Positions 13,502 to 32,149 of a DNA stretch of 64,000 bases are shown here, in pieces. A program made the translations under genes and the position numbers. The notes under the pieces were generated by a model that did no database searches, was not told where the DNA came from, and was given only the letters and a program-made list of their open reading frames with translations. The DNA comes from Alphaproteobacteria bacterium (lineage in GTDB: Bacteria; Patescibacteriota; Minisyncoccia; Phycocordibacterales; JABAAK01): positions 18,013 through 82,012 of the forward strand of contig JASGCN010000001.1 in the NCBI GenBank assembly GCA_030054135.1, in the 5' to 3' direction. Position 1 is the first letter of the stretch. Every line of letters starts with the position of its first letter.

Positions 13502-13915
13502 TTATTTTGTAGGAATTTTTGATGTCCCCAAACGATATACATACCCCCAATAGGGAATAGCCGCAGTACCTATCGGACACGCAGCTCCAGACGGAATCCA
13601 AACAAATCTTCCAAATGCTGCAAATGAAGGTTCTACAATTGAACCTTTTTCAGCCATTACTGCAAATGGAACAAATATTGGGAATGGACTAAATTTATTT
13701 TGAACAGTAAATACAATTCCCAAATTGCATGGAGTAATACTAAGTATTCTTCCACCAAAACTTCTTAAAAAAACAGACGCCGCGATTGTACCTCCCACAA
13801 ACACGCCTGCAGAGCTATTTGATAATTGTGCAAATGATTTATGTATACCTATGAAAAAAAATAGAGTGGCGACTGTGACCAGTATAATTATTTTTCTAGT
13901 ATTCGTTACTATCAT
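13502..13915 (-). CDS. hypothetical small protein with N-terminal hydrophobic segment (uncertain)
   Basis: 137-aa ORF. It overlaps the 5' end of the downstream plus-strand gene by ~65 nt, so one of the two starts may be wrong. Confidence 0.25.
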   Translation of the reverse strand: MIVTNTRKIIILVTVATLFFFIGIHKSFAQLSNSSAGVFVGGTIAASVFLRSFGGRILSITPCNLGIVFTVQNKFSPFPIFVPFAVMAEKGSIVEPSFAAFGRFVWIPSGAACPIGTAAIPYWGYVYRLGTSKIPTK

Positions 13916-14804
13916 ACCAATAGTATACTCGTGTTACACTTTATATATGGCAGAACCGTATCCAAAAGAATACACCACGCGATTCACTGGATCTTATTAT
14001 AAAATATATATTGTATGCATATTAATACTAGGCAGTATTGTTGGTTTTTTGTATATAACAAAAAAAAATAATCCTCTACTCACTGTATCTTTGAGTAGCA
14101 ACACTACGTACGCAGAGACAGACTCAGATCAAGATTCTTATCCGGATTGGCTCGAACATGTTTCAGGATCAAATCCATATCAAAGTAATTCTGTCCCTGA
14201 AGGAAACATTCTTGATGAAGTATCAACATACATTCCTCCTGCCCGTAGACCTATTCCAAATGATTTATTAAAACTGACTGTTTCTCTTGCAAATGGGACT
14301 CTTACTGAATCTGAACAAAAACTTATTCAACAAAAAAGTATAGCGTATCTTACTGATACTCAATTAAATACATCTATCCCACCATTTGTGTATTCAATTA
14401 ATAATACTGTAAACCCAGCGTTAGTTGCTGAAACAATTTCTTTTGGATTACAAATTATGACCGTACCCGTTCCTATTGAAAAAGTTATTGCTGAATATTT
14501 AGCCGATCCAATCGCCAATGAAGCAAAAATTAAAAATGTCTCTATTCGTTGTGCACGAGCACTTAAAATATTTCCACGTGCAATTCCATCCGCTATAGAA
14601 ATTGAATACAAAAAGATTGTTTTTCGTATTGCGAGACTTTGCGAAGCAACCAACATTGCTTCAACCGGAACCACTTTTGATGAATTTGTTTACATGGCTT
14701 ATTTACTTGTTACCACAGAGTTTACTGCAAATAATTTTAGAAATGATTACATAACAACTATCACCAAACTTGGTGATACACTTGACGTACTAATTAAAAA
14801 ATAA
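13851..14804 (+). CDS. membrane-anchored hypothetical protein; first gene of the T4SS-like operon
   Basis: Start chosen at MKKNRVATV followed by a TM helix (IIIFLVFVTIIPIVY). No catalytic motif. Confidence 0.45.
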   Translation: MKKNRVATVTSIIIFLVFVTIIPIVYSCYTLYMAEPYPKEYTTRFTGSYYKIYIVCILILGSIVGFLYITKKNNPLLTVSLSSNTTYAETDSDQDSYPDWLEHVSGSNPYQSNSVPEGNILDEVSTYIPPARRPIPNDLLKLTVSLANGTLTESEQKLIQQKSIAYLTDTQLNTSIPPFVYSINNTVNPALVAETISFGLQIMTVPVPIEKVIAEYLADPIANEAKIKNVSIRCARALKIFPRAIPSAIEIEYKKIVFRIARLCEATNIASTGTTFDEFVYMAYLLVTTEFTANNFRNDYITTITKLGDTLDVLIKK

Positions 14805-14832
14805 ACACATTTATACGATATACTACGCGTAT

Positions 14833-17295
14833 ATGATTTCTGTTCGTGCATTGCTCTTAGGAGGATTATCTGTTGCGGCAGTGCTTGGAATTTATTTTGC
14901 CCTTAATCAAGATAGTGCACAAAATCCAACTACTACAGTTCGCCCACCCACCGAAGAACCTGATGTATTCGGTGGTGTTATTGAAGTTCCTGGTGAAGAC
15001 CAAGCTTTTTTTGATAAACTATTTAGACGCCCAAGTACACCCCTCCCACCGAAGAATGAAAACGTTTTTGTTCCGCCAACTAATATTCAATCAGAAACAT
15101 TTATTCCCGACATCGTTCCTGGAACTCCATACACCAGGTCAGAACTTCTCAATCTTGGTATTGATCCGCTTTTATATTTACAAATTACTAACAATCCATT
15201 TATTCCTACCTATACACCATATATAGCCCCCACAAATTCAAATACTTCAACAATCACAACAACGACTACACAATTACTTGCGAACAATTCAGAAGTTGAT
15301 GCCGCTATTGGAACTGATGTAGTTAATGATGCAATTTTTAAAGAAAATATTGAATTAATAGCACCAGCAAAAAAAACTACTCTTGGTGATGCAGTAAAAC
15401 AATTTGGCATTTCACTTGCAACTTCCATTGCTTTGTGTAAATCATTAGAGGCAATTTTTCCAGAAGGAGTCGCTGTAAACGAAGGAGGAACTGCAAAAGA
15501 CTGCGGTCTTGATTCGCTGGCAGAAAGCTTGGAATATTCATTTATAAAAAAATTAGCAAATCAATATGCGCAATGGGCATCAACTGGGTTTCAAGGAAAA
15601 CCTCTTGATCTTGACAATCCAATTGCATTTTGGAATGATGTTACCGAATATGTTACTTCTGAATATAATGCTGGATGGGATCCAAACAATCTTGCATGTA
15701 GCTTTGGGCCAGATATTCAAGCAAAATTGCGCATTGCTCTTTCAACTGGAGACACCTCTCTACAAAAAAAAGGATGTTCCACTTCTGATATTATTAAAAA
15801 CACACTTCGTGTAGTAAATGAAACCGCAAAAGGTCTTGCGAGCGCTGCCATTACTCCTGTGGAAAGCAAAACCATAGCTCTTGAACAAGCAAGGTACGAA
15901 CGCGCTAAAGCCCAAGCGAGATTAGAAGATCAACGGCGCTACACCGAAGCAAATGGAAAATTGGCAGCCCTTAGTGGATGCAACAGTAGTGATATTAATT
16001 ACTCAATTTTTACTAATAAAATAAGTGCTCTTATTAATACAAGCATGCTTCCTTCAAAAGTTTTTGAAGAAGTAAATACAATTCTTGGTGATGCTGGAGC
16101 TCAAAAACTTGGAGGAATAAACAATTATGTAGATGCACGATATGAGGCTTCGTATCAATTAAATAAAAAGTTAAATTTTGAAGCAGATGTAAATTTTGGT
16201 GAACTTGTTTTGGGAAATACAAAAGAAGGATTTTCAGGTAGTGAAAACGCTAGCATTTTGGAAGATCCAATTTTATCAGAACAACGAGCACGAATCATTG
16301 CTGCCGCTACTACCCTATTAGAAAGCAAAATAAAACAAAAATTTCCAGATCTAAAAGATTGTAAAAAAGTGGATTCTGCAGAAGAAAATAAAGAAAAAGA
16401 AGATAACAAAACTGACCTAGAAAAAGCAAAATTAAAAAAAGAAGCTCGACTTGAGGGCATTGCAAAACTAGTAATCGATGCGAGTATTAAAGGACTTATA
16501 AAAGGAGGAGTCAATGCGAGTCCAGGACTCAGCACAAAAACAACAGCAGAGCTAGAGCGATTCTGTTTACAAGCAAAAAAGACAGTTATAGTAGGGAAAC
16601 CAGGCTCAACTGATGATTGTTTTGATGGTCGTGAAAATCTAACCCCTCCTGTACGAGTATCAGTTACTTGTTTTGAAAATAGAACAGTAATAAAAGATGA
16701 GATTCTTTTTGACGGTTCCTACTACAAGGTAGTGGTCGGTGGGAAATGTTCTCCAAAAGGTGGTGATGTTATTGTGGTTCAAGAAATAGAAGAATCATCT
16801 CAAAAAAGTACTCCTGTGGATAGTGTAGACAAAGAAAATATTATCAAACCACCAACAGAAGAAGGAGCTGCCCCAAGTACGGCTACAGGTGCTCTCACAG
16901 ATACTGAGAAAAAAATATGGATGTATAATTATGCGCTTGTTCTTTACAGACAACCAAACTCGAATAATGATGCATCTATTAAAATAAATAGAGAAACAAT
17001 AAAAAATGTTGGCTACGAGGATCTCAAAAAAATTGTTGACGCAAAATTAATTTTTAATACTGCGGAAGAATACACAAACGCATGTAAGCAATTGATAAAT
17101 AATGATAGGGGTAAGGATTGGATATTAGGCGCAGGGGGAAACGACATTGACGTCTTTAAAAACAACAAATTAAGAGGCAGTGGGGTGAGCAGTACCAAGG
17201 GTATATGTTATATACAATCAAACCCTAATAAACAAAAATCATTAGATAGCTATATACAAGAAACATTAACAGCATTAGGAATCGAACAGAAATAG
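14833..17295 (+). CDS. large (820 aa) membrane-anchored extracytoplasmic protein
   Basis: N-terminal signal anchor, Pro-rich linker and Lys/Glu-rich central region. Lies within a co-directional cluster with tiny intergenic gaps. Confidence 0.5.
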   Translation: MISVRALLLGGLSVAAVLGIYFALNQDSAQNPTTTVRPPTEEPDVFGGVIEVPGEDQAFFDKLFRRPSTPLPPKNENVFVPPTNIQSETFIPDIVPGTPYTRSELLNLGIDPLLYLQITNNPFIPTYTPYIAPTNSNTSTITTTTTQLLANNSEVDAAIGTDVVNDAIFKENIELIAPAKKTTLGDAVKQFGISLATSIALCKSLEAIFPEGVAVNEGGTAKDCGLDSLAESLEYSFIKKLANQYAQWASTGFQGKPLDLDNPIAFWNDVTEYVTSEYNAGWDPNNLACSFGPDIQAKLRIALSTGDTSLQKKGCSTSDIIKNTLRVVNETAKGLASAAITPVESKTIALEQARYERAKAQARLEDQRRYTEANGKLAALSGCNSSDINYSIFTNKISALINTSMLPSKVFEEVNTILGDAGAQKLGGINNYVDARYEASYQLNKKLNFEADVNFGELVLGNTKEGFSGSENASILEDPILSEQRARIIAAATTLLESKIKQKFPDLKDCKKVDSAEENKEKEDNKTDLEKAKLKKEARLEGIAKLVIDASIKGLIKGGVNASPGLSTKTTAELERFCLQAKKTVIVGKPGSTDDCFDGRENLTPPVRVSVTCFENRTVIKDEILFDGSYYKVVVGGKCSPKGGDVIVVQEIEESSQKSTPVDSVDKENIIKPPTEEGAAPSTATGALTDTEKKIWMYNYALVLYRQPNSNNDASIKINRETIKNVGYEDLKKIVDAKLIFNTAEEYTNACKQLINNDRGKDWILGAGGNDIDVFKNNKLRGSGVSSTKGICYIQSNPNKQKSLDSYIQETLTALGIEQK

Positions 17296-17323
17296 AAGAT
17301 ATTAATCTTGTATACTGTGTATA

Positions 17324-19138
17324 ATGAGTATTGCATTACGATATATTTTTATTGTTATTTTATTTTTTGTACTGTGTGCATATACTGCGTATGCACAAAT
17401 TGCAACGACAGGAATCACTGACAATTTCACCGGAAATAGCACTGAGGTTGAATCTATTTTTTCTAATAATGTTTACACTGATTTGAGCACTGCTGATGGA
17501 TATCAAAAAGCAACTACCAAAAGTTTTCATGCACGTGTACGCCAATACCTGTATCTTTTATCTGATGCAAAAAATATTCTTCTTACATTTCCTCATCGTG
17601 GGGGTCTGCGTGTAAAATTAAAAAAATCAAGTGAACCCGATGATGGATTTCCAGGCATTGTAGATACATCTCTTAATGTATTTCCAGTTACAGAAACACA
17701 ACGTGACACTATTCTTTCTATTATCGCCATTAAAGATGACAGTTCAATTAAAAATATAGGCGAAATAAATAATTTTAAAACAGCTTTTAATGATACCTAT
17801 GGAAGAATAAAAAATATGGCTACATGTGACATTGCTCCTGTGTATGTTGAAGCTACCATTAGTGCAGAACATAAAATAAAAAGTGTGCCCTATGAATTAA
17901 TAGGAGGAGCCACTATACATGTGTGTGCTACTCACAAGTATACTCTTTCAACATATAATTTTAAAGATAATGTATCTTTAATACAAAATGATATAAATGA
18001 AATTGAAAAAAATATATCGTTGTTAAAAAAATATGAACAAGTGTATGGAGATACTCGAGAATATCTTGATGCCTACATTATTGCGTTAAACTCAAAAGAA
18101 GATAAAGGACGAAGTGAAGAAAATGAAGTGCTTATTGCAGAAGCGCAGCGAGATAAAGAATGTTTGTTTGGTATACAAATTGCAGGAAATAGTCCAAAAA
18201 TAGAATCTTACCAAACCTGTCAATTTGCACCCACAGAAAATAATATTATTGATGGGGTATCTGGAAGTACACAAAACTACAATATAGAAACCGGCTTATA
18301 CGATAAGGGACAAAAAAATATTATTCCTACATATAAAGGAGAATTTGTTCCTCTATATGTAAATCCGCGATTGCCAGAATTAATTGCAACAACAAAAACT
18401 GTAGCATCGTTACAAAAAGAAACACTCATATCAGGTATTTCTCCATCAAGTACTTCTAAAAAAACTGTAGTGAATGTTGATGAAGTAAAAGAATTTCTTA
18501 CAAAAAAACCAGCTCTCTACTATGGTGGTGTGCTCCCTGCAAAATGTTTTACCAACATATCTGCTACTACACAAGTAACTGGGTATATCCGACTTAACTG
18601 TTCACTAGCTGATATTAATATTTCTTTCGCAAAACGGATTAAAAAAATTCCCAATGAGACTTCTGTTCGTCAATTGCTTGCCATTATGCGTGAACTTTCA
18701 GATACAAAAGAATTCACTGGTGTTACAGTTAAAAAAACAGATGTTGCAAAAGAAGAATCTCCAAAATGTATAAATAACGACCTCGCAAAAATTATTACCG
18801 GCGTGCTTAAAGTTGTGAGTATTGTACCTGGATTGGGAGGAGATGGTGTAGATGATAGTTGTAAAAGTTACCCAAGGGGAGAAAGCGCTGATGGATCTTT
18901 TACTGTTTGGACAACAGAACTTGTTAAAAGACAAGCACCGCTTGTTTCTTTATTTTCTATAGCTGATATTTACAAATATGCTCCTCCTACACCAACAACT
19001 GAAGAAGCATCAGATCTTAAAACAAAAAATTTAAAGCCCCTTCTTGGCACTATTCCAGTAAGTGAATTGGTTAAATTATATCGAAATGGGCTTCGTGAAC
19101 GCTGGGTGCAAAAACAAATTGAAAACCTGGTAAAATAG
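17324..19138 (+). CDS. secreted protein (604 aa) with signal peptide
   Basis: N-terminal signal sequence ending ...AYTAYAQ. Several Cys residues. No homology recognised. Confidence 0.5.
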   Translation: MSIALRYIFIVILFFVLCAYTAYAQIATTGITDNFTGNSTEVESIFSNNVYTDLSTADGYQKATTKSFHARVRQYLYLLSDAKNILLTFPHRGGLRVKLKKSSEPDDGFPGIVDTSLNVFPVTETQRDTILSIIAIKDDSSIKNIGEINNFKTAFNDTYGRIKNMATCDIAPVYVEATISAEHKIKSVPYELIGGATIHVCATHKYTLSTYNFKDNVSLIQNDINEIEKNISLLKKYEQVYGDTREYLDAYIIALNSKEDKGRSEENEVLIAEAQRDKECLFGIQIAGNSPKIESYQTCQFAPTENNIIDGVSGSTQNYNIETGLYDKGQKNIIPTYKGEFVPLYVNPRLPELIATTKTVASLQKETLISGISPSSTSKKTVVNVDEVKEFLTKKPALYYGGVLPAKCFTNISATTQVTGYIRLNCSLADINISFAKRIKKIPNETSVRQLLAIMRELSDTKEFTGVTVKKTDVAKEESPKCINNDLAKIITGVLKVVSIVPGLGGDGVDDSCKSYPRGESADGSFTVWTTELVKRQAPLVSLFSIADIYKYAPPTPTTEEASDLKTKNLKPLLGTIPVSELVKLYRNGLRERWVQKQIENLVK

Positions 19139-19148: not shown

Positions 19149-21230
19149 ATGTTTTTTATCACCACAACACGAATACGGGCATGCGTTCTTGTAATAATAA
19201 TTGCGAGTATATTTTTACTGCTATACTCATCTCATGGATATGCCATTAGCGTAGCAGGTGCAGTGGAAGATGCTCTTTCAACAATTCTTAAAGGATTGAT
19301 TTTATTAATTGCATCTATGTTGAACATCATACTTTCTATTGTTCTGACATTTGCAGAATTTACACTACGATTAGTAAGTTTGGTAATTAATCTTAATTTA
19401 AGCATTGTTGGATTTTTTATTAATTTTGGAATTTTTGGAATAGTGGCAAACATCTTAAAAGATATTATTAACCTATTTATTATCGGAGCATTGATATGGT
19501 TGGCAATAAAAAATCTTTTCACTGAAGAAGCAGAGGCTTCAATTGGGAAAAAAATGCTTATTATTTTTGCAACAATTATTGTAGTAAACTTTAGTGGGTA
19601 TATTATATTATTTCTTGTTGACGCGTCAACATATATATTACAGTTTTCTTCTTATTATTATATTGATTCTAGTCCAAGAGAAGGTTTTGATCCAAATCTA
19701 GTCAATTTTGTACAACACAATCTAAATATTGTAAGATCACTTAATACTGAAACAATAAACGTTGATAACGCATTGGGGATTATGTTCCCATTTCTAGGAC
19801 TTACAGCGGTGTTTTTTTTAATGTTTATATTTTTTAGAGTATGTATGCTTTTAATCATACGATTTATATACACACTTCTTATTATTATGTGCGCACCGTT
19901 GCTAGGAATACAATTTATTAATTCTGCTGCAAGTGGGAATGCTGGCATAGACTATCCTTTTAAAACACAAATAAAAGCAATAGTTGATGAATGGTGGAAT
20001 CAGTTGATAAAAGTATTTCTTTTTATCCCTATATTTTTGCTCGGTATTGGAATTCTTGGAGAAATAATTTCAGATCTCATTGTTCAGAGTGGGTCAAGTT
20101 TTTCAACTAAGCTCGATGTGAAAGGTGTGGCACTTGCACGTAATCAAACACAACTTGCATTTATTCTTCTCATGGTTATTGGATATGGCATTGTATTAAA
20201 AAAAGCTGTTGATTTTGTTGATAGTAAAATTGAAAAAACTATAACAAAAAAAACATGGGACTGGGCATATAGAAAATTTGTTGTTAGCCCTGCAGGACGT
20301 TTCGCAGGAAAAGCAGTTCAAATTGCAGAAAAATATAAACCTACACGCGCTATTTTAAATGGAATAAAATCAGCAGACGAATGGAGAAAAAATACAGACA
20401 ACAGATCTAATAAAGAAATATTTGCAAGTGCATATACTGCTGCAAAAAATAAATTTGAACCTACTGTAGAGCTTAAAAATAATGAATACATAAGAAAACC
20501 AAGCTCTACACTTAATAGGCTGCAAACACAATTAATTGATTTAGAAACAAGAAAAAATGTGGCCGCCAGTAAAAACCAATCAACTGAATCTTTCGATACT
20601 GAAATAAAAAAAATAGGGAAAGAAATAGGGCGTTTAAAAATTACCGAAGATGCAGAAGTAAAACAATATGCTACAAAACTTGCAGTTGATAGTGCTACAC
20701 CCAATTCAACACAAAAAGATGAAGACCAACTTATTAAAGCGGCAGAGAAAATACACAAAACCGCTATCACGCATACAGAAAAAATAGCTTCCATAAAAAA
20801 AAGAGATGACATTACTGATAAAGAAAAACAAATGGAAATTGGTAAAGTAGATACGATAGCAGGAGAAAATTTTTCTGCCGCCATGAATAGTATAACTAAT
20901 AGATCGAATCAAAAAAGTTATGAACAAAATATTCTAAACCCCAAGAGTAGATTTTTAGAAACTATGTATGGCGACGATTTTGCAAGAGTTGCGCGTGGAC
21001 AATCATCCCAAACTCCGCCATCTACATCAACTCCGCCGCCTGCATCAACTCCGCCATCTGCACCACTAGAATTGATGCCCCAAGAAGCACCACTAGAATT
21101 GATGCCCCAAGAAGCACCACTAGAATTGATGCCCCAAGAAGCACCACTAGAATTGATGCCCGAAGAAGGAACACAAGAAGAAGTAAATGCTACTTTGAGA
21201 GAATTGAAAAAAATAGTAGAAAATAAATGA
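19149..21230 (+). CDS. polytopic membrane protein, VirB6/TrbL-like candidate, with C-terminal Pro-rich tandem repeats
   Basis: At least 6-8 hydrophobic helices in the N-terminal 350 aa. Long hydrophilic C-terminal domain ending in PPSTSTPPPASTPPS and 4x APLELMPQE. Positioned just upstream of the VirB3/VirB4-like genes. Confidence 0.55.
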   Translation: MFFITTTRIRACVLVIIIASIFLLLYSSHGYAISVAGAVEDALSTILKGLILLIASMLNIILSIVLTFAEFTLRLVSLVINLNLSIVGFFINFGIFGIVANILKDIINLFIIGALIWLAIKNLFTEEAEASIGKKMLIIFATIIVVNFSGYIILFLVDASTYILQFSSYYYIDSSPREGFDPNLVNFVQHNLNIVRSLNTETINVDNALGIMFPFLGLTAVFFLMFIFFRVCMLLIIRFIYTLLIIMCAPLLGIQFINSAASGNAGIDYPFKTQIKAIVDEWWNQLIKVFLFIPIFLLGIGILGEIISDLIVQSGSSFSTKLDVKGVALARNQTQLAFILLMVIGYGIVLKKAVDFVDSKIEKTITKKTWDWAYRKFVVSPAGRFAGKAVQIAEKYKPTRAILNGIKSADEWRKNTDNRSNKEIFASAYTAAKNKFEPTVELKNNEYIRKPSSTLNRLQTQLIDLETRKNVAASKNQSTESFDTEIKKIGKEIGRLKITEDAEVKQYATKLAVDSATPNSTQKDEDQLIKAAEKIHKTAITHTEKIASIKKRDDITDKEKQMEIGKVDTIAGENFSAAMNSITNRSNQKSYEQNILNPKSRFLETMYGDDFARVARGQSSQTPPSTSTPPPASTPPSAPLELMPQEAPLELMPQEAPLELMPQEAPLELMPEEGTQEEVNATLRELKKIVENK
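21058..21165 (+). repeat. 27-bp tandem repeat x4 (caccactagaattgatgccccaagaag) inside the 3' end of the VirB6-like gene
   Basis: Three identical copies plus one variant. In frame; encodes APLELMPQE repeats. Confidence 0.85.
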
Positions 21231-21388
21231 CATTTTTAAAATTCACAATGTATTAATAAAATCATTTCACCAAAACTACACGTATACTTTAGAAAAAATA
21301 ATGCCCTAATTGATCCAACATAATGGCAATAATCACAGACACATGTATCTCTAGGAGATATTACAACAAACGGTGTATATCAAAATAA

Positions 21389-21404
21389 TAATCACATGTG
21401 ATTA
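21389..21404. promoter_or_regulatory. perfect 16-bp palindrome taatcacatgtgatta, ~35 nt upstream of the VirB3-like start; candidate operator
   Basis: Exact reverse-complement symmetry in the only sizeable (207-bp) intergenic gap inside the cluster. Confidence 0.4.
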
Positions 21405-21437
21405 CCAATACAATTCAAAATGCTATGATACATATAT

Positions 21438-22472: not shown

Positions 22473-22489
22473 CTCTATACTATAGATAT

Positions 22490-24244
22490 ATGCCAACATC
22501 TGCGTCGGACTACCAAACATTTTCAAGTGGAGGGAACATATCCATTAGAGATATTCTTGCCCCAATGTCTATTAAAATAAACACGAAACACATTGAGCTT
22601 GGGGATAAAGTTGCTCGTACACTTTCTATTGTGTCATACCCTCGTTTTCTTAATAATGGCTGGCTTTCGCCAATTATTAATCTAAGTAGAGAATTTGATT
22701 TATGTATTTTTATACACCCGATTGATTCGAGAGATATCTTACGCCAATTTAGAAAAAAAGTTGCTCAAGTAGAAAGTCAAATTATTGATAGAGAGCGTCA
22801 TGGGCTTGTACGAGATCCACAACTTGATGTTGCTTTTAAAGATATTGAAGAACTTCGTAATAGCATACAACAAGCAACTGAAAAAATATTTAATGTTGGT
22901 GTATACATCACCATATATGCAGATACCGTTGAAAATTTAAATAGAACAGAGCAGGATATCCGAGCAGTACTTGAAGGAAGACTTATTTTTGTAAAGCCAA
23001 CTCTCTTTCAACAAGAAAAAGGATTTCAATCAACTACACCGCTTGGAGTAGATTCTCTTGAGATACATACAAAATTAAACACTGAACCCCTATCTAGTTT
23101 TTTTCCTTTTATTTCTTTTGATCTTTCTTCAGATAAGGGGATCCTTTACGGCATTAACCGTCACAATGCTTCTCTAATTCTTTTTGATCGTTTTTCTTTG
23201 CCAAACTATAACTCTGTTACTTTTGCAACTTCTGGAGCAGGAAAATCATACGCTATGAAACTTGAAATTATTCGTTCTCTTATGTTTGGAACTGATGTTA
23301 TTGTAATAGATCCAGAAAATGAATTTCGAAAACTTGCCATTGCTACAGGGGGGAAAACTTTTGATGTTTCTCTTAGTTCTGAAAGTCATATTAATCCTTT
23401 TGATCTCCCTACGCTTACCGAAGATGAATCTCTTTCTGATGCATTAAGAAACAATGTTATAAATCTTGTAGGACTATTTCGAGTTCTTCTTGGTGGACTC
23501 ACAGCTGAAGAAGAGTCTATTATTGATAGAGCAATAAATGAAACCTATGCTCTTAAAGATGTCACACCAGATATTGAAACTTTTGAAGGCCTAGAACCAC
23601 CACTTCTTTCTGATTTTGCAGTAGTACTTGCAGGTATTGAAGGAGGGAAAAATATAACATCTCGATTAAGTCGATATGTTACTGGTTCATGGTCTGGTTT
23701 TATGAATCAGCCAACAAATATAGACATCAATAAACAATTTATTGTATTTTCAATTCGTGATATGGAAGCAGATTTAAAACCTGCGGGTATGTATATTATT
23801 ACTCGCTATATTTGGAATCATGTACGAAAAACACTAAAAAAGAGGCTTCTCGTCGTGGATGAAGCGTGGGTTATGATGCAATCTGAAGACACGGCCCAAT
23901 TTTTATATGGGCTTGTTAAACGAGGAAGAAAATACTATCTCGGTGTTGGAACCATTACACAAGATGTGGGAGATTTTCTTAAAAGTCAATATGGAAAAGC
24001 AATACTTACGAACTCATCTCTTGTGTTGCTTCTAAGACAGTCCCCCACCACCATTGATCTTGTAAAAGAAACATTCAATCTCACAGAAAATGAAAAATAT
24101 CTTTTACTTGAATCTGATGTGGGAGAAGGACTTTTTATTGCGGGGCTTAAACGGGTTGCAATAAAAATTATTAGTTCATACACAGAAAATCAAATTATCA
24201 CCACAGATCCAAGTCAACTTGTACAAAAAATAAATAATGCCTAA
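22490..24244 (+). CDS. virB4: VirB4/TraC/CagE-family conjugation/T4SS ATPase, central and C-terminal ATPase part
   Basis: Middle-domain pattern (LGDKVARTLSIVSYPRFLNNGWL), Walker A ATSGAGKS, Walker B LLVVDEAW. Together with the preceding ORF the length is ~795 aa, typical of VirB4. Confidence 0.8.
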   Translation: MPTSASDYQTFSSGGNISIRDILAPMSIKINTKHIELGDKVARTLSIVSYPRFLNNGWLSPIINLSREFDLCIFIHPIDSRDILRQFRKKVAQVESQIIDRERHGLVRDPQLDVAFKDIEELRNSIQQATEKIFNVGVYITIYADTVENLNRTEQDIRAVLEGRLIFVKPTLFQQEKGFQSTTPLGVDSLEIHTKLNTEPLSSFFPFISFDLSSDKGILYGINRHNASLILFDRFSLPNYNSVTFATSGAGKSYAMKLEIIRSLMFGTDVIVIDPENEFRKLAIATGGKTFDVSLSSESHINPFDLPTLTEDESLSDALRNNVINLVGLFRVLLGGLTAEEESIIDRAINETYALKDVTPDIETFEGLEPPLLSDFAVVLAGIEGGKNITSRLSRYVTGSWSGFMNQPTNIDINKQFIVFSIRDMEADLKPAGMYIITRYIWNHVRKTLKKRLLVVDEAWVMMQSEDTAQFLYGLVKRGRKYYLGVGTITQDVGDFLKSQYGKAILTNSSLVLLLRQSPTTIDLVKETFNLTENEKYLLLESDVGEGLFIAGLKRVAIKIISSYTENQIITTDPSQLVQKINNA

Positions 24245-24626
24245 GCCAGCCCAAAAAAAAGAAAGCGACGGTGGTTCTTTACTTGGAAAATATTTTGTTG
24301 GGTGTTTTTACATAGTGCATACTATTATTGGATCAATGATATCTTCCTTGCTCATGGCAGGAGGTGTAGCATTAATCACTGGTATATTGACTTTATTCAT
24401 TGGTATTCCAGTATTTATGCTAGGATATATTTTGCGGATTACCATGGCAGTAATTACTTTTTTTATATTTTTTACAATAATGATTGCAGACAATAGACTG
24501 AGTTTTAATTTGGTTATACGACTTATACTTGGATTTGTTATTGAGTTAGCGCCTACACCAATATTTCTGTCGTCATATACACATTTTTTTATTTCCTACG
24601 TATTTCTATCCAAAACAAAAAAATAA
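24237..24626 (+). CDS. small polytopic membrane protein (3-4 TM)
   Basis: 129 aa, almost entirely hydrophobic helices. Overlaps the virB4 stop by 8 nt, which suggests translational coupling. Confidence 0.45.
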   Translation: MPKPAQKKESDGGSLLGKYFVGCFYIVHTIIGSMISSLLMAGGVALITGILTLFIGIPVFMLGYILRITMAVITFFIFFTIMIADNRLSFNLVIRLILGFVIELAPTPIFLSSYTHFFISYVFLSKTKK

Positions 24627-24653
24627 TTCCTGCACGATGGCTATACTAGAGAT

Positions 24654-25814
24654 ATGCATATGTTTCTAAAAAATAGCCTGGGTGTACTTTTTATAATTTG
24701 CATATGTATATGGAGCGCGTATCATGTGCATGCACAAGTTCCTTCTGCATTTGCTGATGATCCTACACAAGCAACTGATGATTCGAATCGTCTTGATGAA
24801 TTAAAAAATATTGAAAATGGTGAAGGATTAAATGTGCAACAAGATTCAGATTCTTGTAATAGCGCTGACCCCTTATACAATGAATACTGTAGAACATTAA
24901 ACAATTTGGAAGATACTCACCCTGCATACACCTTAGAAACTGATCCTCCATTTCCAGAACCGAACACTTCGGCAAATGTGTCTATTAAAGCAGGGGCTAT
25001 GAGTGTTGATAATATTCAATCAGTTGAGTGGACAGTTCGTGGAAAAACATTTACCTCCCGTAGTACAAATACTGTTGTTTCTATAAATGATCTTGATGAT
25101 CAAACAACAGTCAAAGCACGGGTGTTCCATTATACTGATGCAGGATTAGTTGAATATAAAAAAATACTTACACTCACACTTACTCCCATGATATTTGATT
25201 TACATTGGGAAGGAAAAACTGTAGTGCCACCACTATATGAAGGAGTTAAATATATGGGGCCAAATACTGATGTTCAAGTACAGGCATACATTCGATTACT
25301 TCAAAATAATATTCTTTACACAGAAAAAGATTTTAATTTTCGATGGGAAAGAGAATCACTTCCTCATATTTCAAAAGGAGCAACTGCCATAGTCTCTGGA
25401 ACTGATTATACTTCATCTCCATTGCGCGTCGCCTGTTTTATAAAATTTAAATATGGAGACCTTTCTTTTGATAAGAGCATTCAAATACCGATTGTAAACC
25501 CATATTCAGTGATATATCAACAAGACAATCTTAATGGGAAAAACCACCTCACGCTACAAAAAAATTCAACTATTGCTAACAGATTCACTTTATTATCTTT
25601 TTATCCACTCTACACCAATGTGGATTCTTTTGTTCAAGGACTCAATACATACGAATGGGATATTGCTGGGAATAAAAAAAATCAAAAAAGAACTGTACGT
25701 ATAGAGAGTAGTGGCGAAGGAACTGTTGGGATAGGTATTTTTATGACACCCGGAAAAGAAAGTGATTTTCTTCAAAGTGTAGACCAGTCACTTTCATTAA
25801 ACTTTGTTCAATAA
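24654..25814 (+). CDS. secreted protein (386 aa) with signal peptide
   Basis: Signal peptide MHMFLKNSLGVLFIICICIWSAYHVHAQ. No recognisable motif. Confidence 0.5.
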   Translation: MHMFLKNSLGVLFIICICIWSAYHVHAQVPSAFADDPTQATDDSNRLDELKNIENGEGLNVQQDSDSCNSADPLYNEYCRTLNNLEDTHPAYTLETDPPFPEPNTSANVSIKAGAMSVDNIQSVEWTVRGKTFTSRSTNTVVSINDLDDQTTVKARVFHYTDAGLVEYKKILTLTLTPMIFDLHWEGKTVVPPLYEGVKYMGPNTDVQVQAYIRLLQNNILYTEKDFNFRWERESLPHISKGATAIVSGTDYTSSPLRVACFIKFKYGDLSFDKSIQIPIVNPYSVIYQQDNLNGKNHLTLQKNSTIANRFTLLSFYPLYTNVDSFVQGLNTYEWDIAGNKKNQKRTVRIESSGEGTVGIGIFMTPGKESDFLQSVDQSLSLNFVQ

Positions 25815-25846
25815 ATTCAATGTAGTCGTGTTACACTATCATTAAC

Positions 25847-28800
25847 ATGCCATTACAACAAATACTTCGAAGCGTATTAGTGTGCATATATTTATGTGTT
25901 TTTGTCATATTCATTTTTATTAATTATACTCATGCAGAAATTTCAACAACTGATCAATCAGGCTCCGAAAAAGATTTAATTTCAATAGGAGATGTTCCAG
26001 AAGAAAGATATTTCACAGAAATATTTAAAAATAAATTTAATCTAGATTTGCAAAAAGAAGGTTCTGATGAAATGAAAAAAAAAGACCAGTTTACTAAATT
26101 TAAAGATTTATTAGTTACATTTTTAAAAATAATTCTTGCCATATCTGCAGCCATAGTAACAATAAGAATAATGATTACTGGCATTAAAACGCTTAGTGCA
26201 GGGTACTCAGGAAATGTTGGGAATCTTGTTAACGCACTTTCTGAATTTAAAAAATCTATTTTTGCAGTATTTGTTCTTGCGATTTCTATTCCAGCAGTTG
26301 AATACATCCACGGAAAACTTGTTCCTCGAGATCTTTATTCTGGACAAATCGCCACCACAACCACCACCACGAGCGCTAAAAAGGCCTCGCCATCAACAGG
26401 AACACCAAATGGAAATTCTCAACCTACCTCTACAACTCCATTATCTAACAATAATGATTCTTCAAGCGCACCAACCTCTCCTCCTTCTGAAAAATCTCTT
26501 TCTATCCGTGCTCAATGGATGATTGAAGAAACTTCTGGTAAAAATGAGGAAGAGAAGGAAGCTATAAGAAAAGATTTTGTAGACGCAGTATCCAAGGCAA
26601 TAGAAAATTGCAAAACACTAAGTACAAATAATAATTGTACAATACTTACAAAGTATGCCGACGGCGATGCAAAAATTCCGATAGAAGAACAGAAACAATA
26701 CAAAGACGTTTTAACTAATGCTTATAACATATACATATTTAATAAAAGTCAAAATATAAAACCTAATGAAACTATTACAACGACTACATCTACCCGTGGT
26801 AGTCCTAAAGTACCAAATGTACAAACCAAAAGCATTACAAATCCAGCAGCAACAGAATTACAAAATATTGCCCTTAGTGATATTTCACTCAATCCTAGTA
26901 ATTCTCTTTCTGGGAAAACGGCTGGTTCCATTATTAACAATGCTTTAATTTCTGGAGTCGAACGATCAGAAATACAAAGATTAGAAGATTTATATAACAC
27001 GGCAGTTAAAGAATTAAACAGCGGAAAAGTTGAAACGATTGCACAAGAAAGGCGCGCTCTTTTTGAGAAAATTGCAAATATGAAGCCAACATATGAACAA
27101 CCGAAAACTGCTACGTCTGTAGATATACCAGGTATCCCATCCATTCTTCTTCAAAAAAATAATCCTCTACCACTCAAAATACCAGGTAGTATACAGATAC
27201 CCGACAGATTAGGTGCTGTACAAGATACTGCACGATCCTCTCAGTCCTCTAGTGTTTTTACTCAAGAAAAGGCTCCAACAATTAATGGCCAGACAAGTAT
27301 AAATATAGATAAAAAAGTTAACATCATAATGCCTTTGAATAATAACCCTAGTTCATTACCAATTCTTTCTACTCTTTCTACAAAAAATATATCCTCAAGT
27401 ACTCCTGAAACAATCAATGGGGAAAATACTTTAATTAGTCAAGTGGATATAAATAAATGGCAGACAGAACAAATAGCGACTGCAAGAGCAGAAATCGAAC
27501 AAGATAAAATAGTTGAAAAACAGAAAGTTCAAACTGCTGTTGCAAGAGCAGAAATAGCACTCGAAAAAGCAAATGAAGAGTACAAAAAAAATTCAACAAA
27601 TGAAAATAAAGCATTGGTACAAAACGCAAAAGAAGCTCTTGCTGAGGCTCGTGTACAAGCACAAGAATTTGGTATCCTTGAAGCAATTGATAGAAAAAAC
27701 GAGGGGTTTGGTTCTATTATTGAAATTCCCGATTACGGAGATTATTTCCCCAATGACAAAACAGTCAGAGATGCTTTTTTTGAAAAAGAAAGAGCACAAA
27801 TGAAAGCATTTGAAGAAGCATCAAATGCTCTAGAGGAAAAAAGAAAAATTGCAATTAAAAATGGGAATACAAAAATGGCGAATGATATTGTAAAAGAACA
27901 AAGAAAATTATTTAACGATTACAACACAAAATTAGAAACAATTGTGAATGACGCAAAAAATAAAGATGACATAATCGCTTTTTCATTAGCAAGAGAGGAA
28001 AAAGAAAAAAAAGAAACTCTTCAAACAAATTCAAATACATGGTTTGATTCAATAAAAGGTTTTTTTTCTCCAAAAAAAGATGAGCCTGCTCCATCTGCTC
28101 CAATTGTCCTTACAAAACAGAATATAACAAATACTCCCACCTCACAAGAATATGCGAATAATAAATCTGTAGCCACAACAAATGTATCAGCCGGGGTTAT
28201 TAAAAGAGAAACACCTAACAGCGCAACTCCTATAAATATAAATAGAGAAAATCTTTCAAATATTCAATCACTTCCACAAGTTAATTCACTCGCTTTGCCA
28301 ACACCAAAAGATATACCTAATTTAAAAGTGCATTCTGCGCCACCAGAGAAAAGATCTACACCACAAAACAATGAGAAAAAAGTACTCACACAAAATAACC
28401 CACAGGACTTTTCGCAATCAATACTATCACCACCTAACTCATTTTTTGGAAACATTGTCAATGTAACACAGAATTTAGGATGTAGTACAGGTATACAAAT
28501 ACTTTGTACTACAAATAATATAAACACTAAAACGGCCCCCACAACACAAAAAACACAAACGGAACCTATATCTATTACAGAAACAGATTTGAAAAATATA
28601 ACAACCCCCAACAATCAAAAGATATCTTTTACACAGCAAAATGTGAACTATGAGAAACAATATACACCTACACGAGCATTCGACACTATAAAAAACATAG
28701 GAAAAGAAATAGACAAAAAAAATATCACCAAAGAAGATAGAGCATACGTATTGGATATTTTAAAAAAAACGAAAGATCTTGACACAATACAAGCAAAAGA

Positions 28801-29908
28801 ATTTCCTAAAGAAGTTGGTATATTGCTTGGTAATATTCTAGATACAAACATACCAGTAGAATTACTCTCTAACAATTTTTTAACGGCCGTTGCTGACAGA
28901 GCACGCGAGTATTATAACCCTAAGGGCGTTCCCTCAGTAGGAGCTATGGTAGAGGATTTACTGCCGAGACTGTCTTTTAAACAAATTTATGATTTAGAGC
29001 AAAAAAGAATTTCAAATCCCAATTGGGTAAAAAATTCAGAAGCGTTAGCATACAGTGTTGGTGAGACTTACCGTAAAGCCAAAAAAGATGTTTTAGACGA
29101 AAATATTACCAGTGATGCTACTTTTTGGCCCGGGCAGAATGAAAGACTATCATTAAATTCAGACGATGAGAAAACATATCTAACCTTATATGCCAATGGT
29201 CAAAAAGATAAAGCATACGAATATAGAGATAATATTTTTAAAGAATTAAATTCATACATACTTGAAAATGGAGGTACTGATACATTAACAAAAGAACAAA
29301 AACAAATATTTAGCGCATATATACGCGAAGGTATTTCAGCTGCGGCACAAGAGACAAACAGCATAAAACAAGCCAAAGAAAACACAAAACAAGTCAATGA
29401 AAACAATACACGAGCAGTCAAAGACTTTTATCTAGAAAAAGCAAATGGGGAACGAATTTATTTTGATGGAAATGGAAAATATAATAATCGTTTAAATTAT
29501 TTTTCACAACAAATAGAATTTAAAAAAAATGAGAAAACTGGAAAAATAATATCAAATATTACCATAGATAACTTAACTCCTAAAGACAGAGAACAATATA
29601 CAGATGACATTGATTCTATAAAGAGAAACCGCAACAACTATGATCAAGTAGTAAATGTGCAATTGCGAACAGTGGAGTATAGATTAAAACCTGAATACCG
29701 TAAATATGAGAACATATCGACAGAGACTATTCAAGCAGAAAATAACATACGAGCTCAAGAATCAATTAAAAAATTAAATACTATTCTTTTGAAACATATT
29801 GAGAATGGAGTACTCAATAAAAATGGTGAAAAACTATATTCACTATACAAAAATGGCGAAGCTTCAATTGATGATCTAAATGAATATTCAGACGCTATTA
29901 AAAAATAA
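25847..29908 (+). CDS. giant (1353 aa) membrane-anchored surface protein with Ser/Thr/Pro-rich linker and coiled-coil-like Lys/Glu-rich regions
   Basis: N-terminal signal-like segment plus two further hydrophobic helices (LVTFLKIILAISAAIVTIRIMITGI; IFAVFVLAISIPAVEYI) in the first ~150 aa, which is pilin/VirB2-like topology. Then TTTTTTSAKKASPSTGTP low-complexity region and internal ARAEIEQ/ARAEIALE repeats. Confidence 0.55.
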   Translation: MPLQQILRSVLVCIYLCVFVIFIFINYTHAEISTTDQSGSEKDLISIGDVPEERYFTEIFKNKFNLDLQKEGSDEMKKKDQFTKFKDLLVTFLKIILAISAAIVTIRIMITGIKTLSAGYSGNVGNLVNALSEFKKSIFAVFVLAISIPAVEYIHGKLVPRDLYSGQIATTTTTTSAKKASPSTGTPNGNSQPTSTTPLSNNNDSSSAPTSPPSEKSLSIRAQWMIEETSGKNEEEKEAIRKDFVDAVSKAIENCKTLSTNNNCTILTKYADGDAKIPIEEQKQYKDVLTNAYNIYIFNKSQNIKPNETITTTTSTRGSPKVPNVQTKSITNPAATELQNIALSDISLNPSNSLSGKTAGSIINNALISGVERSEIQRLEDLYNTAVKELNSGKVETIAQERRALFEKIANMKPTYEQPKTATSVDIPGIPSILLQKNNPLPLKIPGSIQIPDRLGAVQDTARSSQSSSVFTQEKAPTINGQTSINIDKKVNIIMPLNNNPSSLPILSTLSTKNISSSTPETINGENTLISQVDINKWQTEQIATARAEIEQDKIVEKQKVQTAVARAEIALEKANEEYKKNSTNENKALVQNAKEALAEARVQAQEFGILEAIDRKNEGFGSIIEIPDYGDYFPNDKTVRDAFFEKERAQMKAFEEASNALEEKRKIAIKNGNTKMANDIVKEQRKLFNDYNTKLETIVNDAKNKDDIIAFSLAREEKEKKETLQTNSNTWFDSIKGFFSPKKDEPAPSAPIVLTKQNITNTPTSQEYANNKSVATTNVSAGVIKRETPNSATPININRENLSNIQSLPQVNSLALPTPKDIPNLKVHSAPPEKRSTPQNNEKKVLTQNNPQDFSQSILSPPNSFFGNIVNVTQNLGCSTGIQILCTTNNINTKTAPTTQKTQTEPISITETDLKNITTPNNQKISFTQQNVNYEKQYTPTRAFDTIKNIGKEIDKKNITKEDRAYVLDILKKTKDLDTIQAKEFPKEVGILLGNILDTNIPVELLSNNFLTAVADRAREYYNPKGVPSVGAMVEDLLPRLSFKQIYDLEQKRISNPNWVKNSEALAYSVGETYRKAKKDVLDENITSDATFWPGQNERLSLNSDDEKTYLTLYANGQKDKAYEYRDNIFKELNSYILENGGTDTLTKEQKQIFSAYIREGISAAAQETNSIKQAKENTKQVNENNTRAVKDFYLEKANGERIYFDGNGKYNNRLNYFSQQIEFKKNEKTGKIISNITIDNLTPKDREQYTDDIDSIKRNRNNYDQVVNVQLRTVEYRLKPEYRKYENISTETIQAENNIRAQESIKKLNTILLKHIENGVLNKNGEKLYSLYKNGEASIDDLNEYSDAIKK

Positions 29909-29917
29909 ATTAAAACA

Positions 29918-30769
29918 TCATCTATTCAAATTATTTCTTTCGTCCCATTGATTTTTCCCGTCTTTCAGTAATTGAATAACCTTTTCCCAGTATGTAGAAT
30001 AAAAAGTTGATAAGTATGTATAAGAAGAAGAGATAAGAAGAGATTGTTCTATTTTGAACTGAAACTGAAGAGGATCATGTAAAGAATTAGAGATATCTAT
30101 ATTGTACTCTTCTTTAATTTTTTTAGTAACGATATGTGTAATAAATATAGAAAATAATTTGAATTGTTCTTTAGAAAAATCGTTTGGAGATATCAGTGCA
30201 GGCATTGTTTGTACCAGATGTTGTTCTTCTGTAGATAGCGCAGTTTCACCTATTGCTTTTTTTGCAATTGCTACAAAATCTTCAATAGAATAACTTTTCT
30301 CTCCATTGGTATACATAGTAATTCCTTTTAACACATACGCACGATGCCAATAAAGAAAATTTAATTCTAATTCTTTTTCATATTTTTTTATACATTCTTT
30401 CGCTTCTTTGTGATATTGAAAATTATTTTTTTCATTACTAATATAAGACAAAACATATTCTATTCCAATAGAAAATATTAATTGTATATTTTTATTGTAT
30501 GTTTCGTTATTTTCCAAATGAAACATTTTTTGTAAAGCATTTAATTCTTCTAGATTTTGTTGCATAAGATATTTTTCTTTATACAAAAAATCATGTATTT
30601 CTTTGTATGTAGGAGGGATATACTCATTATCAATATCATTGTTTTTATTTGCTTGTGCATGTACTGCCATTCCTAACAATATTGGAAGTATAAATGTATT
30701 AATAAAAGCTGAAGAGGGACTTTTTTTTTCTTTATTCTTAGGATATTTCATATATGTACATAATAACAC
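29918..30769 (-). CDS. secreted hypothetical protein (283 aa)
   Basis: Signal peptide (ILPILLGMAVHAQA). Helical, repeat-like composition. Convergent with the giant gene. Confidence 0.45.
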   Translation of the reverse strand: MLLCTYMKYPKNKEKKSPSSAFINTFILPILLGMAVHAQANKNNDIDNEYIPPTYKEIHDFLYKEKYLMQQNLEELNALQKMFHLENNETYNKNIQLIFSIGIEYVLSYISNEKNNFQYHKEAKECIKKYEKELELNFLYWHRAYVLKGITMYTNGEKSYSIEDFVAIAKKAIGETALSTEEQHLVQTMPALISPNDFSKEQFKLFSIFITHIVTKKIKEEYNIDISNSLHDPLQFQFKIEQSLLISSSYTYLSTFYSTYWEKVIQLLKDGKNQWDERNNLNR

Positions 30770-30778
30770 GGTATACTA

Positions 30779-32149
30779 ATGTTATATCTTTATTTTTATA
30801 TGTTAAATGACCCTCTTTCGCAAACACCCGTACCACAAAATACAAATGATGAAAAAAAAGAAAAGCGTGTTACCATTGCGTCTGTTATTGCATTGTTGAT
30901 ATTGCTAGGATTAATAGCAATATTTTTTTTCTTTTTTTACAATAAAGATAAAACCAGCCAGCAAATAAATGAAAAAAAAACCGCAGGAACTCTCACCAGT
31001 GGCGAAGTTGTCCCCCAACTTAATCTTGATGATTTGTATAAAAAAACTCCTGACTATATACCTGATGAAGATATAGTATCAACTGCTCCGGATAGATCCC
31101 AAACATCTGCCAAGCCCCCCATCACACTTCCAATACCGCTTGTATTTAAAATATTCGATGGTCCTACCGCAGGATATAAAATACGAGAAGATACGGCTGG
31201 TATTACTCGAATAGACATAGTTGAAGGAGGCAGTGGTACACGATATTCAACACCACTTTTCCCCCCTGCGATATCTCGCGTTGGGGGAGGAGAGGTTACT
31301 CGTGTAAAAAAGGCACATATTTTTGATGCAAACAAAGTTCTTCTTATTTACGAAAATCAAAGTGATGAATTGCAAACAAATTCTGCATTTGTTCCTTTTA
31401 ATACGCTACAATCACAGGGCATAGAATTATTCTTAAAAAATATAAAAGCAACCACTAACAATGCAAATAAACTATTCTATTTACAAAAAACCCCTGACGG
31501 TTCTATTGGTGGTGTCATTGACGCTACTGATGCAAAATCGAAAACAATTATTTGGAAAAATGCAATTACACAATGGAATATACAGTGGGGGAATAATGAT
31601 CTCATTACTATAAAAACCCCACTCAGTGAAACACTAAGTAGTTTTGTATACCGTGCAGATCCAAATGGTATTAAACCGACAAAACGTACCCACGGAAGAG
31701 TATTGGGCACTTCAATTCTTTATCACGACGAACAAAACACTTCTGTGCAAAATTATATTTTAAATAAAAAATTTGTAACTGAAATAAAAACTCCTGAACA
31801 AAGTACTTGGGCGATTGAAACTACATTGCCAGAAAAATGTGCCGGTTACAAAGCTGTTTTTATTTGTGGATTACCCATTTATCTTCCTCAAATAACAAGA
31901 TCTGGGAATCCATTTGTATTCCCAGATTCATGGTATTTAGGAGATGCGACATTTGATGATATTATTATTCTTTTTGATAGTACCACAAAACAAAGATACG
32001 AATTGGTGAACCCAGATTCTACTACAGTTCAAAATCTTACCGATTCTGCACGATTTGATATTGTCGATCCGTACATTTCAAAAAAACTTACATTTTTCTT
32101 TTTCATTAACAATGTGGATCTCTCTTTATGGGCGGTTCGTTTGCAGTAA
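30779..32149 (+). CDS. membrane-anchored extracytoplasmic hypothetical protein (456 aa)
   Basis: N-terminal TM (VTIASVIALLILLGLIAIFFFFF) followed by a large hydrophilic domain. Confidence 0.45.
   Translation: MLYLYFYMLNDPLSQTPVPQNTNDEKKEKRVTIASVIALLILLGLIAIFFFFFYNKDKTSQQINEKKTAGTLTSGEVVPQLNLDDLYKKTPDYIPDEDIVSTAPDRSQTSAKPPITLPIPLVFKIFDGPTAGYKIREDTAGITRIDIVEGGSGTRYSTPLFPPAISRVGGGEVTRVKKAHIFDANKVLLIYENQSDELQTNSAFVPFNTLQSQGIELFLKNIKATTNNANKLFYLQKTPDGSIGGVIDATDAKSKTIIWKNAITQWNIQWGNNDLITIKTPLSETLSSFVYRADPNGIKPTKRTHGRVLGTSILYHDEQNTSVQNYILNKKFVTEIKTPEQSTWAIETTLPEKCAGYKAVFICGLPIYLPQITRSGNPFVFPDSWYLGDATFDDIIILFDSTTKQRYELVNPDSTTVQNLTDSARFDIVDPYISKKLTFFFFINNVDLSLWAVRLQ

Follow-up and report, generated by a model that had tools for sequence, protein, structure and literature searches.

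Which kind of machine is encoded by the gene block at positions 13851-32149 of a 64,000-nt stretch of contig JASGCN010000001.1 (assembly GCA_030054135.1, positions 18,013 to 82,012 of the forward strand; the whole stretch is referred to below as the window), and does it serve conjugation or another purpose? The original prediction had read this block as an operon of about 18 kb for an apparatus resembling a type IV secretion system (T4SS). Our comparative analysis makes it very probable that the block is a chromosomal, origin-proximal T4SS of Paceibacterota, which is related to the MPF_FATA class and has either lost or never had the parts for conjugation.

The assignment is carried by the VirB6-like, VirB3, TrsD-like and VirB4 genes in the middle of the block (genes are on the plus strand unless stated otherwise), which the original prediction had named as VirB6-like, VirB3-like and split VirB4 genes and which were borne out by profile searches. 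The 584-aa product of the gene at 22490-24244 scored 378 bits against the NCBIfam model conju_CD1110 (curated cut-off 325; model positions 176-733) and matched Pfam P-loop_TraG (E=5.5e-22) and AAA_10. Its Walker A (ATSGAGKS) and Walker B (LLVVDE, residue 453) motifs are intact, and this VirB4 core is the predicted motor of the system. The 210-aa product of the TrsD-like gene at 21840-22472 corresponds to the N-terminal domain of VirB4, with matches to NCBIfam VirB4_plasma (1.5e-9), to positions 1-154 of the CD1110 VirB4 model (9.7e-8) and to TrsD (2.4e-6), and with a precomputed match to PF26593 (TraC-like) on record. Since the two proteins cover model positions 1-154 and 176-733, respectively, VirB4 is indeed divided between a TrsD-type protein and a separate ATPase core. 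To place the locus among its relatives, a VirB4-core scan of one genome per species was used, which gave 269 relatives, and the best 80 of the 269 loci were analysed. In 74 of the 81 loci compared, virB4 has a TrsD gene ahead of it, so that the split is ancestral rather than the result of a frameshift. The 132-aa product of the gene at 21438-21836 forms a hydrophobic hairpin and is a VirB3/PrgI protein (Pfam PrgI, E=5.4e-9, 36.9 bits with a gathering threshold of 27), in agreement with the VirB3-like protein with two transmembrane (TM) segments predicted earlier; PrgI homologues are found directly upstream of TrsD-VirB4 in 67 of the 81 loci.

The 693-aa protein encoded at 19149-21230 is predicted to have about eight TM segments in residues 1-355, while its C-terminal half, some 340 aa long, is hydrophilic. 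Alone it has no Pfam match. A profile of the VirB6 family of about 48 related loci, built without this protein, matched it at E=1.3e-18, and the family profile in turn matches the TrwI/VirB6 structure 7o3v_F (E=5.1e-8), with Pfam TrbL/VirB6 matched by 9 of 35 family members. The VirB6 call holds transitively, because the 693-aa protein joins a family that matches TrwI and TrbL. Within the tail of the same gene, a 27-nt tandem repeat at 21060-21179 (4.4 copies, 95% matches) encodes APLELMPQE repeats, and an 18-nt repeat lies just upstream of it at 21011-21062. Relatives have a gene for a soluble protein of about 234-240 aa between virB6 and virB3 (L085:13315-14019; L086:3771-4493), which could be a missing T4SS component. 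In the window this place is taken by a gap of 207 nt (21231-21437) that contains no credible open reading frame (ORF) and in which no remnant of the 234-aa gene was detected.

Does the machine extend beyond this core? According to the original prediction most members of the block lacked recognisable homology. Iterated profile searches within the 80 related loci revealed that four of these orphans (317, 820, 386 and 456 aa) represent families that are conserved and syntenic in about 30-37 loci, the window proteins being 11-25% identical to most relatives and 34% identical to those of the closest genome; the earlier statement stands for the 604-, 283- and 129-aa proteins and for the C-terminal part of the 1353-aa protein. 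A published survey of such systems (PMC12102498) does not describe the four families in its sections on gene repertoire and chromosomal context.

The first of them is the 317-aa membrane protein family (ORF call at 13851-14804), found in 31 loci (30 of the 51 that have enough upstream DNA), always ahead of the gene of the 820-aa family and upstream of virB6. Its members have N-terminal TM segments, a DxDxDG/TSP3-like calcium-binding motif after the anchor and then a domain of about 200 aa; matches in a PDB profile search were confined to the calcium-motif region, and the syntenic counterpart in L085 has a faint TSP3_bac match. The second family, present upstream of virB6 in 35 loci, includes as a divergent member the signal-anchored, extracytoplasmic 820-aa protein with 12 cysteines (ORF call at 14833-17295). 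It shares a conserved Cys-containing domain at about residues 185-345 with the consensus WINxGFxGxPxF...LCxPF...CTL...GGW...PQNN and has no sequence match in Pfam or the PDB. A homologue search with the 820-aa protein and with the family and domain alignments returned the query itself or nothing. A phmmer search of the protein against 1.84 billion representatives detected 48 relatives, none of them close and all in the conserved domain only (E between 5e-7 and 1e-3). AlphaFold2 with these 48 relatives gave a helical model at a predicted local distance difference test score (pLDDT) of 54.9, and of 60.8 for a canonical family member; the models of this family had no fold match in the PDB. DUF4141, a protein of Bacteroides conjugative transposons whose gene lies between traG and traJ, was matched weakly and recurrently by 4 of 49 members (best E=2.9e-4), which is too weak for homology to be claimed and serves as a lead only.

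Behind virB4, the gene at 24237-24626, which overlaps the end of virB4 by 8 nt, encodes a 129-aa protein predicted to be a small polytopic membrane protein. No sequence similarity to it was detectable in the related loci; a small protein with at least two TM segments is encoded directly after virB4 in 26 of 72 loci and also in L085. The third family follows right behind virB4 and the small membrane gene in 37 loci, and its window member is a 386-aa secreted protein with a signal peptide (24654-25814). Its PDB profile gave weak immunoglobulin (Ig)-like matches (phage Hoc, Ig-like, 1.8e-4; immunoglobulin chains at E of about 0.1-2.5), and the protein possibly contains an Ig-like, beta-rich domain. 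The fourth family, downstream of virB4 in 35 loci (32 of the 54 that have enough downstream DNA), is the last conserved gene before yidC and is represented in the window by a 456-aa membrane-anchored protein with a TolB-like propeller (30779-32149). The family profile matches TolB structures at E=7e-11, the window protein is 36% identical to its homologue in L002, the closest genome, and the same slot is occupied in L085. Searched singly against PDB sequences, the 820-, 456-, 604- and 1353-aa proteins gave no match.

Loci L085 and L086 were reached through two relatives of the 820-aa domain, independently of VirB4, and both carry PrgI. The gene order in L085 is TSP3-like, 820-aa family, 685-aa polytopic, 234-aa, PrgI, TraC-like/TrsD, VirB4, 148-aa membrane, 342-aa, T4SS_pilin, 422-aa and yidC; the shorter contig L086 extends from the 820-aa family gene through to PrgI. 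Since the accessory families are syntenic in these two loci, which were not selected through VirB4, they are taken to belong to the system. The alternative that the machine comprises no more than the five or six genes in the centre, from virB6 to the small membrane gene, and that the flanking proteins are unrelated envelope or surface neighbours is consistent with the lack of conservation of the 604-, 283- and 1353-aa genes, with a promoter-like box of its own at most genes (see below) and with the occurrence of TolB-like propellers as general envelope proteins. We regard it as unlikely, given that the 317-, 820-, 386- and 456-aa families keep their order around virB4 in about 30 species at such low identity, and that the loci found by way of the 820-aa family contain PrgI and, in L085, TrsD and VirB4 as well.

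Where, then, is the pilin? In the relatives, the gene after that of the 386-aa family encodes a signal peptide and two hydrophobic helices, and 31 of 33 such proteins match Pfam T4SS_pilin (PF18895, E<=0.01), with three matching TrbC/VirB2. They are between 133 and about 1200 aa long, owing to long C-terminal extensions in many members; T4SS_pilin-domain proteins extended to 800-1200 aa are encoded in L034, L036 (625-4017, minus strand), L040 and L042 (12053-14608). The parts of the survey PMC12102498 covered here treat VirB2-like pilins as small and do not mention extended or fused forms. In the window the slot is occupied by a gene for a 1353-aa protein (25847-29908), placed there by position and topology. 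Residues 1-165 of this protein comprise a signal peptide and hydrophobic helices at about 88-112 and 138-160, a topology like that of VirB2/T4SS_pilin, and the remaining approximately 1190 aa consist of low-complexity linkers, a coiled-coil-like stretch and a globular-looking C-terminal part. The N-terminus scored E=0.012 (16.1 bits) against PF18895, below the gathering threshold of 26.6; the local pilin profile aligned with it in register, at E=4e-5 in hmmsearch and at 20% probability in hhalign. No homologue of the part beyond the N-terminus was found in the related loci or among PDB sequences, and the closest genome, L002, has a 168-aa pilin-like gene instead. The 1353-aa protein is a probable, very divergent extended pilin-domain protein. 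A further-reaching proposal, which we put forward tentatively and consider less probable, is that in the product of this slot a VirB2-type pilin module is covalently joined to an extracellular, lineage-specific region of some 1190 residues.

Two further genes appear to be lineage-specific additions of this genome coding for secreted proteins. The 604-aa secreted protein (ORF call at 17324-19138) has nine cysteines and a signal peptide ending AYA/Q; no homologue was found in the 80 related loci and no match in Pfam, NCBIfam or the PDB, and it is assigned to the system by its position only. The 283-aa ORF on the minus strand (29918-30769), supported by both the ORF call and a Logan gene call, has no homologue in the related loci; its product is predicted to be secreted if translated from an internal ATG (MKYPKNK...), and the gene may stand outside the system. 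The closest genome, L002, lacks the 604-, 1353- and 283-aa genes.

Is the block one operon? It consists of 11 plus-strand genes and one minus-strand gene, the 283-aa ORF between the 1353- and 456-aa genes, and not of ten consecutive plus-strand genes as first counted. The ORFs are not due to chance, given lengths of 600-1350 codons at 33% G+C, and an independent Logan assembly from this organism yielded the same gene calls, the minus-strand one included. Intergenic distances are mostly -8 to 32 nt, the exceptions being the gap between virB6 and virB3 and the interval between the 1353- and 456-aa genes; gaps of 0-30 nt or overlaps, as stated earlier, hold for most genes and fail for the 207 nt before virB3.

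Of the window's 37 genes that start with ATG, 15 have a TAYRHT hexamer, in most cases TATACT or TACACT, that begins 11-16 nt ahead of the ATG, with 1.2 expected, and Shine-Dalgarno-like motifs were not enriched (3 observed, 3.7 expected). In the cluster such boxes stand before the 820-, 604- (TATACT at -13), 584-, 386- and 1353-aa genes, in the regions 14819-14832, 17311-17323, 22476-22489, 24642-24653 and 25832-25846. The virB3 gene is preceded by a TATGAT box, outside the counted pattern, and no such box was found before virB6 (10-nt gap), trsD (3-nt gap) or the 129-aa gene. A generic scan for sigma-70 promoters and terminators was uninformative (92 sites, 91 expected), as was a full-text literature search on leaderless start signals in Paceibacterota. 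The -10-like boxes, which most genes have 6-8 nt before the ATG, suggest that the cluster is probably transcribed as several short leaderless units. Of the co-directional operon of about 18 kb originally proposed, the gene block is real; it is not strictly co-directional and probably not a single operon. A 137-aa minus-strand ORF with a signal-peptide-like N-terminus (ORF call at 13502-13915) lies between ksgA and the cluster and has a TATACT box at -12; if the annotated starts apply, its 5' end overlaps that of the 317-aa ORF by 65 nt (13851-13915). The idea of a conserved small minus-strand gene upstream of the cluster was rejected, with candidates in 2 of 21 loci only (L002, and a dissimilar one in L047). 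A positional analogue on the same strand and with a similar N-terminus is clear in L002 alone, no sequence similarity to the ORF was seen among the related loci, and its membership of the system is doubtful.

Is the locus a conjugative element? The upstream flank comprises PNPase, a ComM-like Mg-chelatase, uvrD and ksgA, the last of these 350 nt from the block; downstream, yidC (minus strand), rnpA (minus strand), dnaA and dnaN follow within 0-3 kb, and then a class A penicillin-binding protein, ruvC and ruvB. The cumulative GC-skew minimum at 34-36 kb of the window identifies the region as the chromosomal replication origin. The order uvrD-ksgA-...-virB3-trsD-virB4-...-yidC-dnaA-dnaN recurs in most sufficiently long loci from dozens of species. 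The best 80 of the 269 relatives are metagenome-assembled genomes (MAGs) of Paceibacterota, Parcubacteria and other Patescibacteria, some of them mislabelled, with the same synteny, and the closest VirB4 relative among the 269 (71% identity) is encoded on a complete 641-kb Ca. Paceibacterota chromosome. The source is a Paceibacterota chromosome (Parcubacteria; Candidate Phyla Radiation (CPR)/Patescibacteria), and the block itself is, as its setting indicates, chromosomal and vertically inherited. The NCBI record QM526_00195, identical to the 820-aa protein, belongs to a MAG labelled 'Alphaproteobacteria bacterium', which is probably mislabelled or mis-binned, since its gene content and all relatives point to Patescibacteria; several related MAGs bear the labels Bdellovibrionales or Flavobacterium.

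Domain scans of about 48 window ORFs and of a further 10 kb upstream (about 74 kb in total) detected no relaxase, no coupling protein (VirD4/TcpA) and no VirB11 domain, as the original prediction had stated. In place of the borders of a mobile element, the block has housekeeping flanks, a position kept in dozens of species and a G+C content that is uniform across the window without a break at the block. By its defining features, the locus does not qualify as a conjugative element. One could argue for an ordinary integrated conjugative element with genes for relaxase, coupling protein and integrase beyond the inspected DNA, on the grounds that its VirB4 belongs to the conjugative-type family CD1110, that a tyrosine recombinase gene is present at 3713-4609 and that some CPR genomes contain relaxases. 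The recombinase is, however, Xer-like in architecture and stands 9 kb off among housekeeping genes, in the same context in the second assembly, and the survey by Quinonero-Coronel et al. (2025, Microb Genom 11:001409, PMC12102498) reports, in the parts covered here, just 109 relaxase homologues in its entire CPR data set, 15 of them close to virB4. Together with the conserved gene order, the uniform G+C and the outcome of the domain scans, this makes such an element highly improbable, and a non-conjugative use in a host-attached ultra-small bacterium, as first suggested, is supported by the lack of relaxase and coupling protein and by the conserved housekeeping setting.

How does the locus relate to systems already described? 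The same parts of PMC12102498 describe a monophyletic CPR clade of VirB4 related to MPF_FATA, with TrsD, PrgI/VirB3, VirB6 and VirB2-like pilins near virB4 and a location near dnaA, dnaN, rnpA and ksgA; there, the majority of CPR VirD4 homologues lie far from virB4, and VirB8 is rare. The window agrees with these systems in its MPF_FATA-related VirB4, in TrsD and PrgI directly upstream of it and VirB6 nearby, in lacking a relaxase and in its site beside ksgA, rnpA, dnaA and dnaN. It differs in the pilin slot, which holds the 1353-aa protein and no stand-alone small pilin, and in the added lineage-specific 604- and 283-aa genes. The second published example is the T4SS of Southlakia epibionticum (SEML1_0006-0019), which is essential for epibiotic growth and has no recognisable coupling protein or relaxase, and for which protein export or an alternative role has been suggested (Wang et al. 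2023, Cell 186:4803, PMC10633639); for systems of this type, this essentiality is the single functional result. Both are origin-proximal chromosomal clusters with Gram-positive-like subunits and pilin or pilin-like genes inside and without a recognisable coupling protein or relaxase. S. epibionticum belongs to another CPR class, Saccharibacteria, which have six small pilins in an array and, downstream of virB4, peptidase and lysozyme genes, whereas no cell-wall hydrolase domain was found in the window cluster. In its TrsD/PrgI genes and its setting, the locus is by sequence a member of this already published class of CPR T4SS (Wang 2023; the parts of Quinonero-Coronel 2025 referred to above). 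With the MPF_FATA systems (PrgH-PrgI-PrgJ of pCF10, CD1110 of C. difficile CTn2, TrsD of pGO1) it has in common the order VirB6-like, VirB3 (PrgI), VirB4, a VirB4 above the CD1110 cut-off and a separate TrsD-type N-terminal domain of VirB4. Unlike them, it has no detected relaxase, type IV coupling protein, VirB1-type hydrolase or recognisable VirB8 (PrgL-like), it has a pilin-like gene, which Gram-positive systems lack, and it is chromosomal, flanked by housekeeping genes and vertically conserved.

What would such a machine do? The VirB6-like, VirB3/PrgI, TrsD and VirB4 proteins constitute the conserved translocon in the membrane and its motor, surrounded by a conserved set of partners, namely the calcium-motif, Cys-rich helical, small polytopic, possibly Ig-like, pilin-slot and TolB-like proteins. 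In the mechanism that we propose, a VirB4 hexamer seated on VirB3/VirB6 would use ATP to extract pilin-type subunits from the membrane, and these would assemble into a short pilus or conduit across the cell wall, with the conserved extracytoplasmic proteins forming or decorating the wall-spanning, host-contacting part. The machine may exchange material between epibiont and host, by effector export and/or uptake of host macromolecules, rather than transfer plasmids. In reviews the role of the Patescibacteria T4SS is called unknown, and effector delivery or nucleotide acquisition is mentioned.

Within this proposal, nucleic-acid import and effector export are about equally probable, and sequence alone cannot decide between them. 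In the first case, VirB4 would power the uptake of host DNA or RNA that feeds a nucleotide-deficient cell. The archaeal Ced/Ted DNA importers, which employ a VirB2-like pilus, and the ComB system of Helicobacter are derived from T4SS and need no relaxase. The window resembles such importers in its lack of relaxase and coupling protein and in the presence of a VirB2-like pilin slot; its VirB4 core gives a weak, partial match to CedB (E=2e-6), far below the CedB cut-off, whereas the conjugative CD1110 model is matched above its own. A published perspective names the T4SS as a candidate route of nucleotide acquisition, and a 2026 preprint reports host-RNA uptake in a cultivated CPR bacterium with tubular structures that reach into the host and may be T4SS pili, proposes that PNPase converts host RNA to nucleoside diphosphates and leaves the route of RNA uptake unresolved. 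PNPase and an NYN-domain nuclease gene (4983-7720) are encoded 6-9 kb upstream of the T4SS in the same plus-strand run, which may be coincidence. None of the cluster's components was recognised as a translocase or as binding DNA or RNA, and import is put forward here as a possibility only. A device for effector export or for contact and adhesion, which would deliver proteins into or onto the host or display the 1353-aa protein on the surface for attachment, is a similarly tentative proposal. It accords with the suggestion of protein export or an alternative role by Wang et al. and with effector delivery as cited in the perspective, as well as with the abundance of secreted and surface proteins in the cluster and with the variable 604-, 1353- and 283-aa genes inside a conserved frame, as expected of modules for host specificity or effectors. 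Effector T4SS, on the other hand, usually require a coupling protein, the Ptl and Brucella systems being exceptions, and searches of the cluster proteins revealed neither toxin nor enzyme domains.

Several points weigh against the interpretation of the block as a T4SS devoted to exchange with a host. No VirB8-like protein (PrgL/TraM-type) was recognised among the cluster proteins in Pfam, NCBIfam or PDB sequences, and no VirB1-type hydrolase (SLT/CHAP/NlpC) was found among the 12 cluster proteins in Pfam and NCBIfam. The gene for a coupling protein could lie in another part of the genome, beyond the approximately 74 kb inspected. The assignment of the 1353-aa protein as a pilin rests on position, topology and sub-threshold scores, the 604- and 283-aa genes are unconserved and members by adjacency only, and the TolB-like gene may code for an envelope protein without relation to the system and simply be a neighbour of yidC. 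Furthermore, the direction of transport and the substrate are, as for every CPR T4SS, inferred only.

Some features of the surroundings may be recorded here. The T4SS cluster and the uvrD-ksgA run (4983-32149, plus strand) lie left of both dnaA and the GC-skew minimum, the origin being at about 33-36 kb; judged from skew and gene order only, they would be head-on to replication and yidC/rnpA co-directional with it. The sole other secretion ATPase in the window is a 599-aa PilB/GspE-type T2SSE protein (40354-42153, minus strand) 8 kb away, probably a type IV pilus component. An HlyD-like/ABC ATPase/MacB-FtsX-type exporter set is encoded at 46517-50165 (plus strand) in an organism believed to be monoderm, and 53367-55866 holds what appears to be a type II restriction-modification pair, in which the gene for an N6/N4 DNA methylase (276 aa) precedes that for an AlwI-family endonuclease (555 aa).

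The role of the essential T4SS of Patescibacteria is an open question for a very large and mostly uncultivated group of bacteria, and the locus leaves this question unanswered. What it adds is a gene-by-gene frame of the Paceibacterota system, in which conserved partners (the 317-, 820-, 386- and 456-aa families) are told apart from inserts (the 604- and 283-aa genes and most of the 1353-aa gene), together with a pilin slot able to hold giant proteins and a leaderless promoter pattern. If the fusion of a pilin module to a large extracellular region were true, a hypervariable domain for host recognition or effector function would be part of the T4SS filament or of the pool of pilin in the membrane, and this, with four conserved accessory families that had not been annotated before and include a fold-unassigned Cys-rich helical domain, would amount to a Paceibacterota-specific T4SS architecture. 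The conserved families and the giant protein of the pilin slot represent concrete targets for structural and functional work in cultivable relatives.

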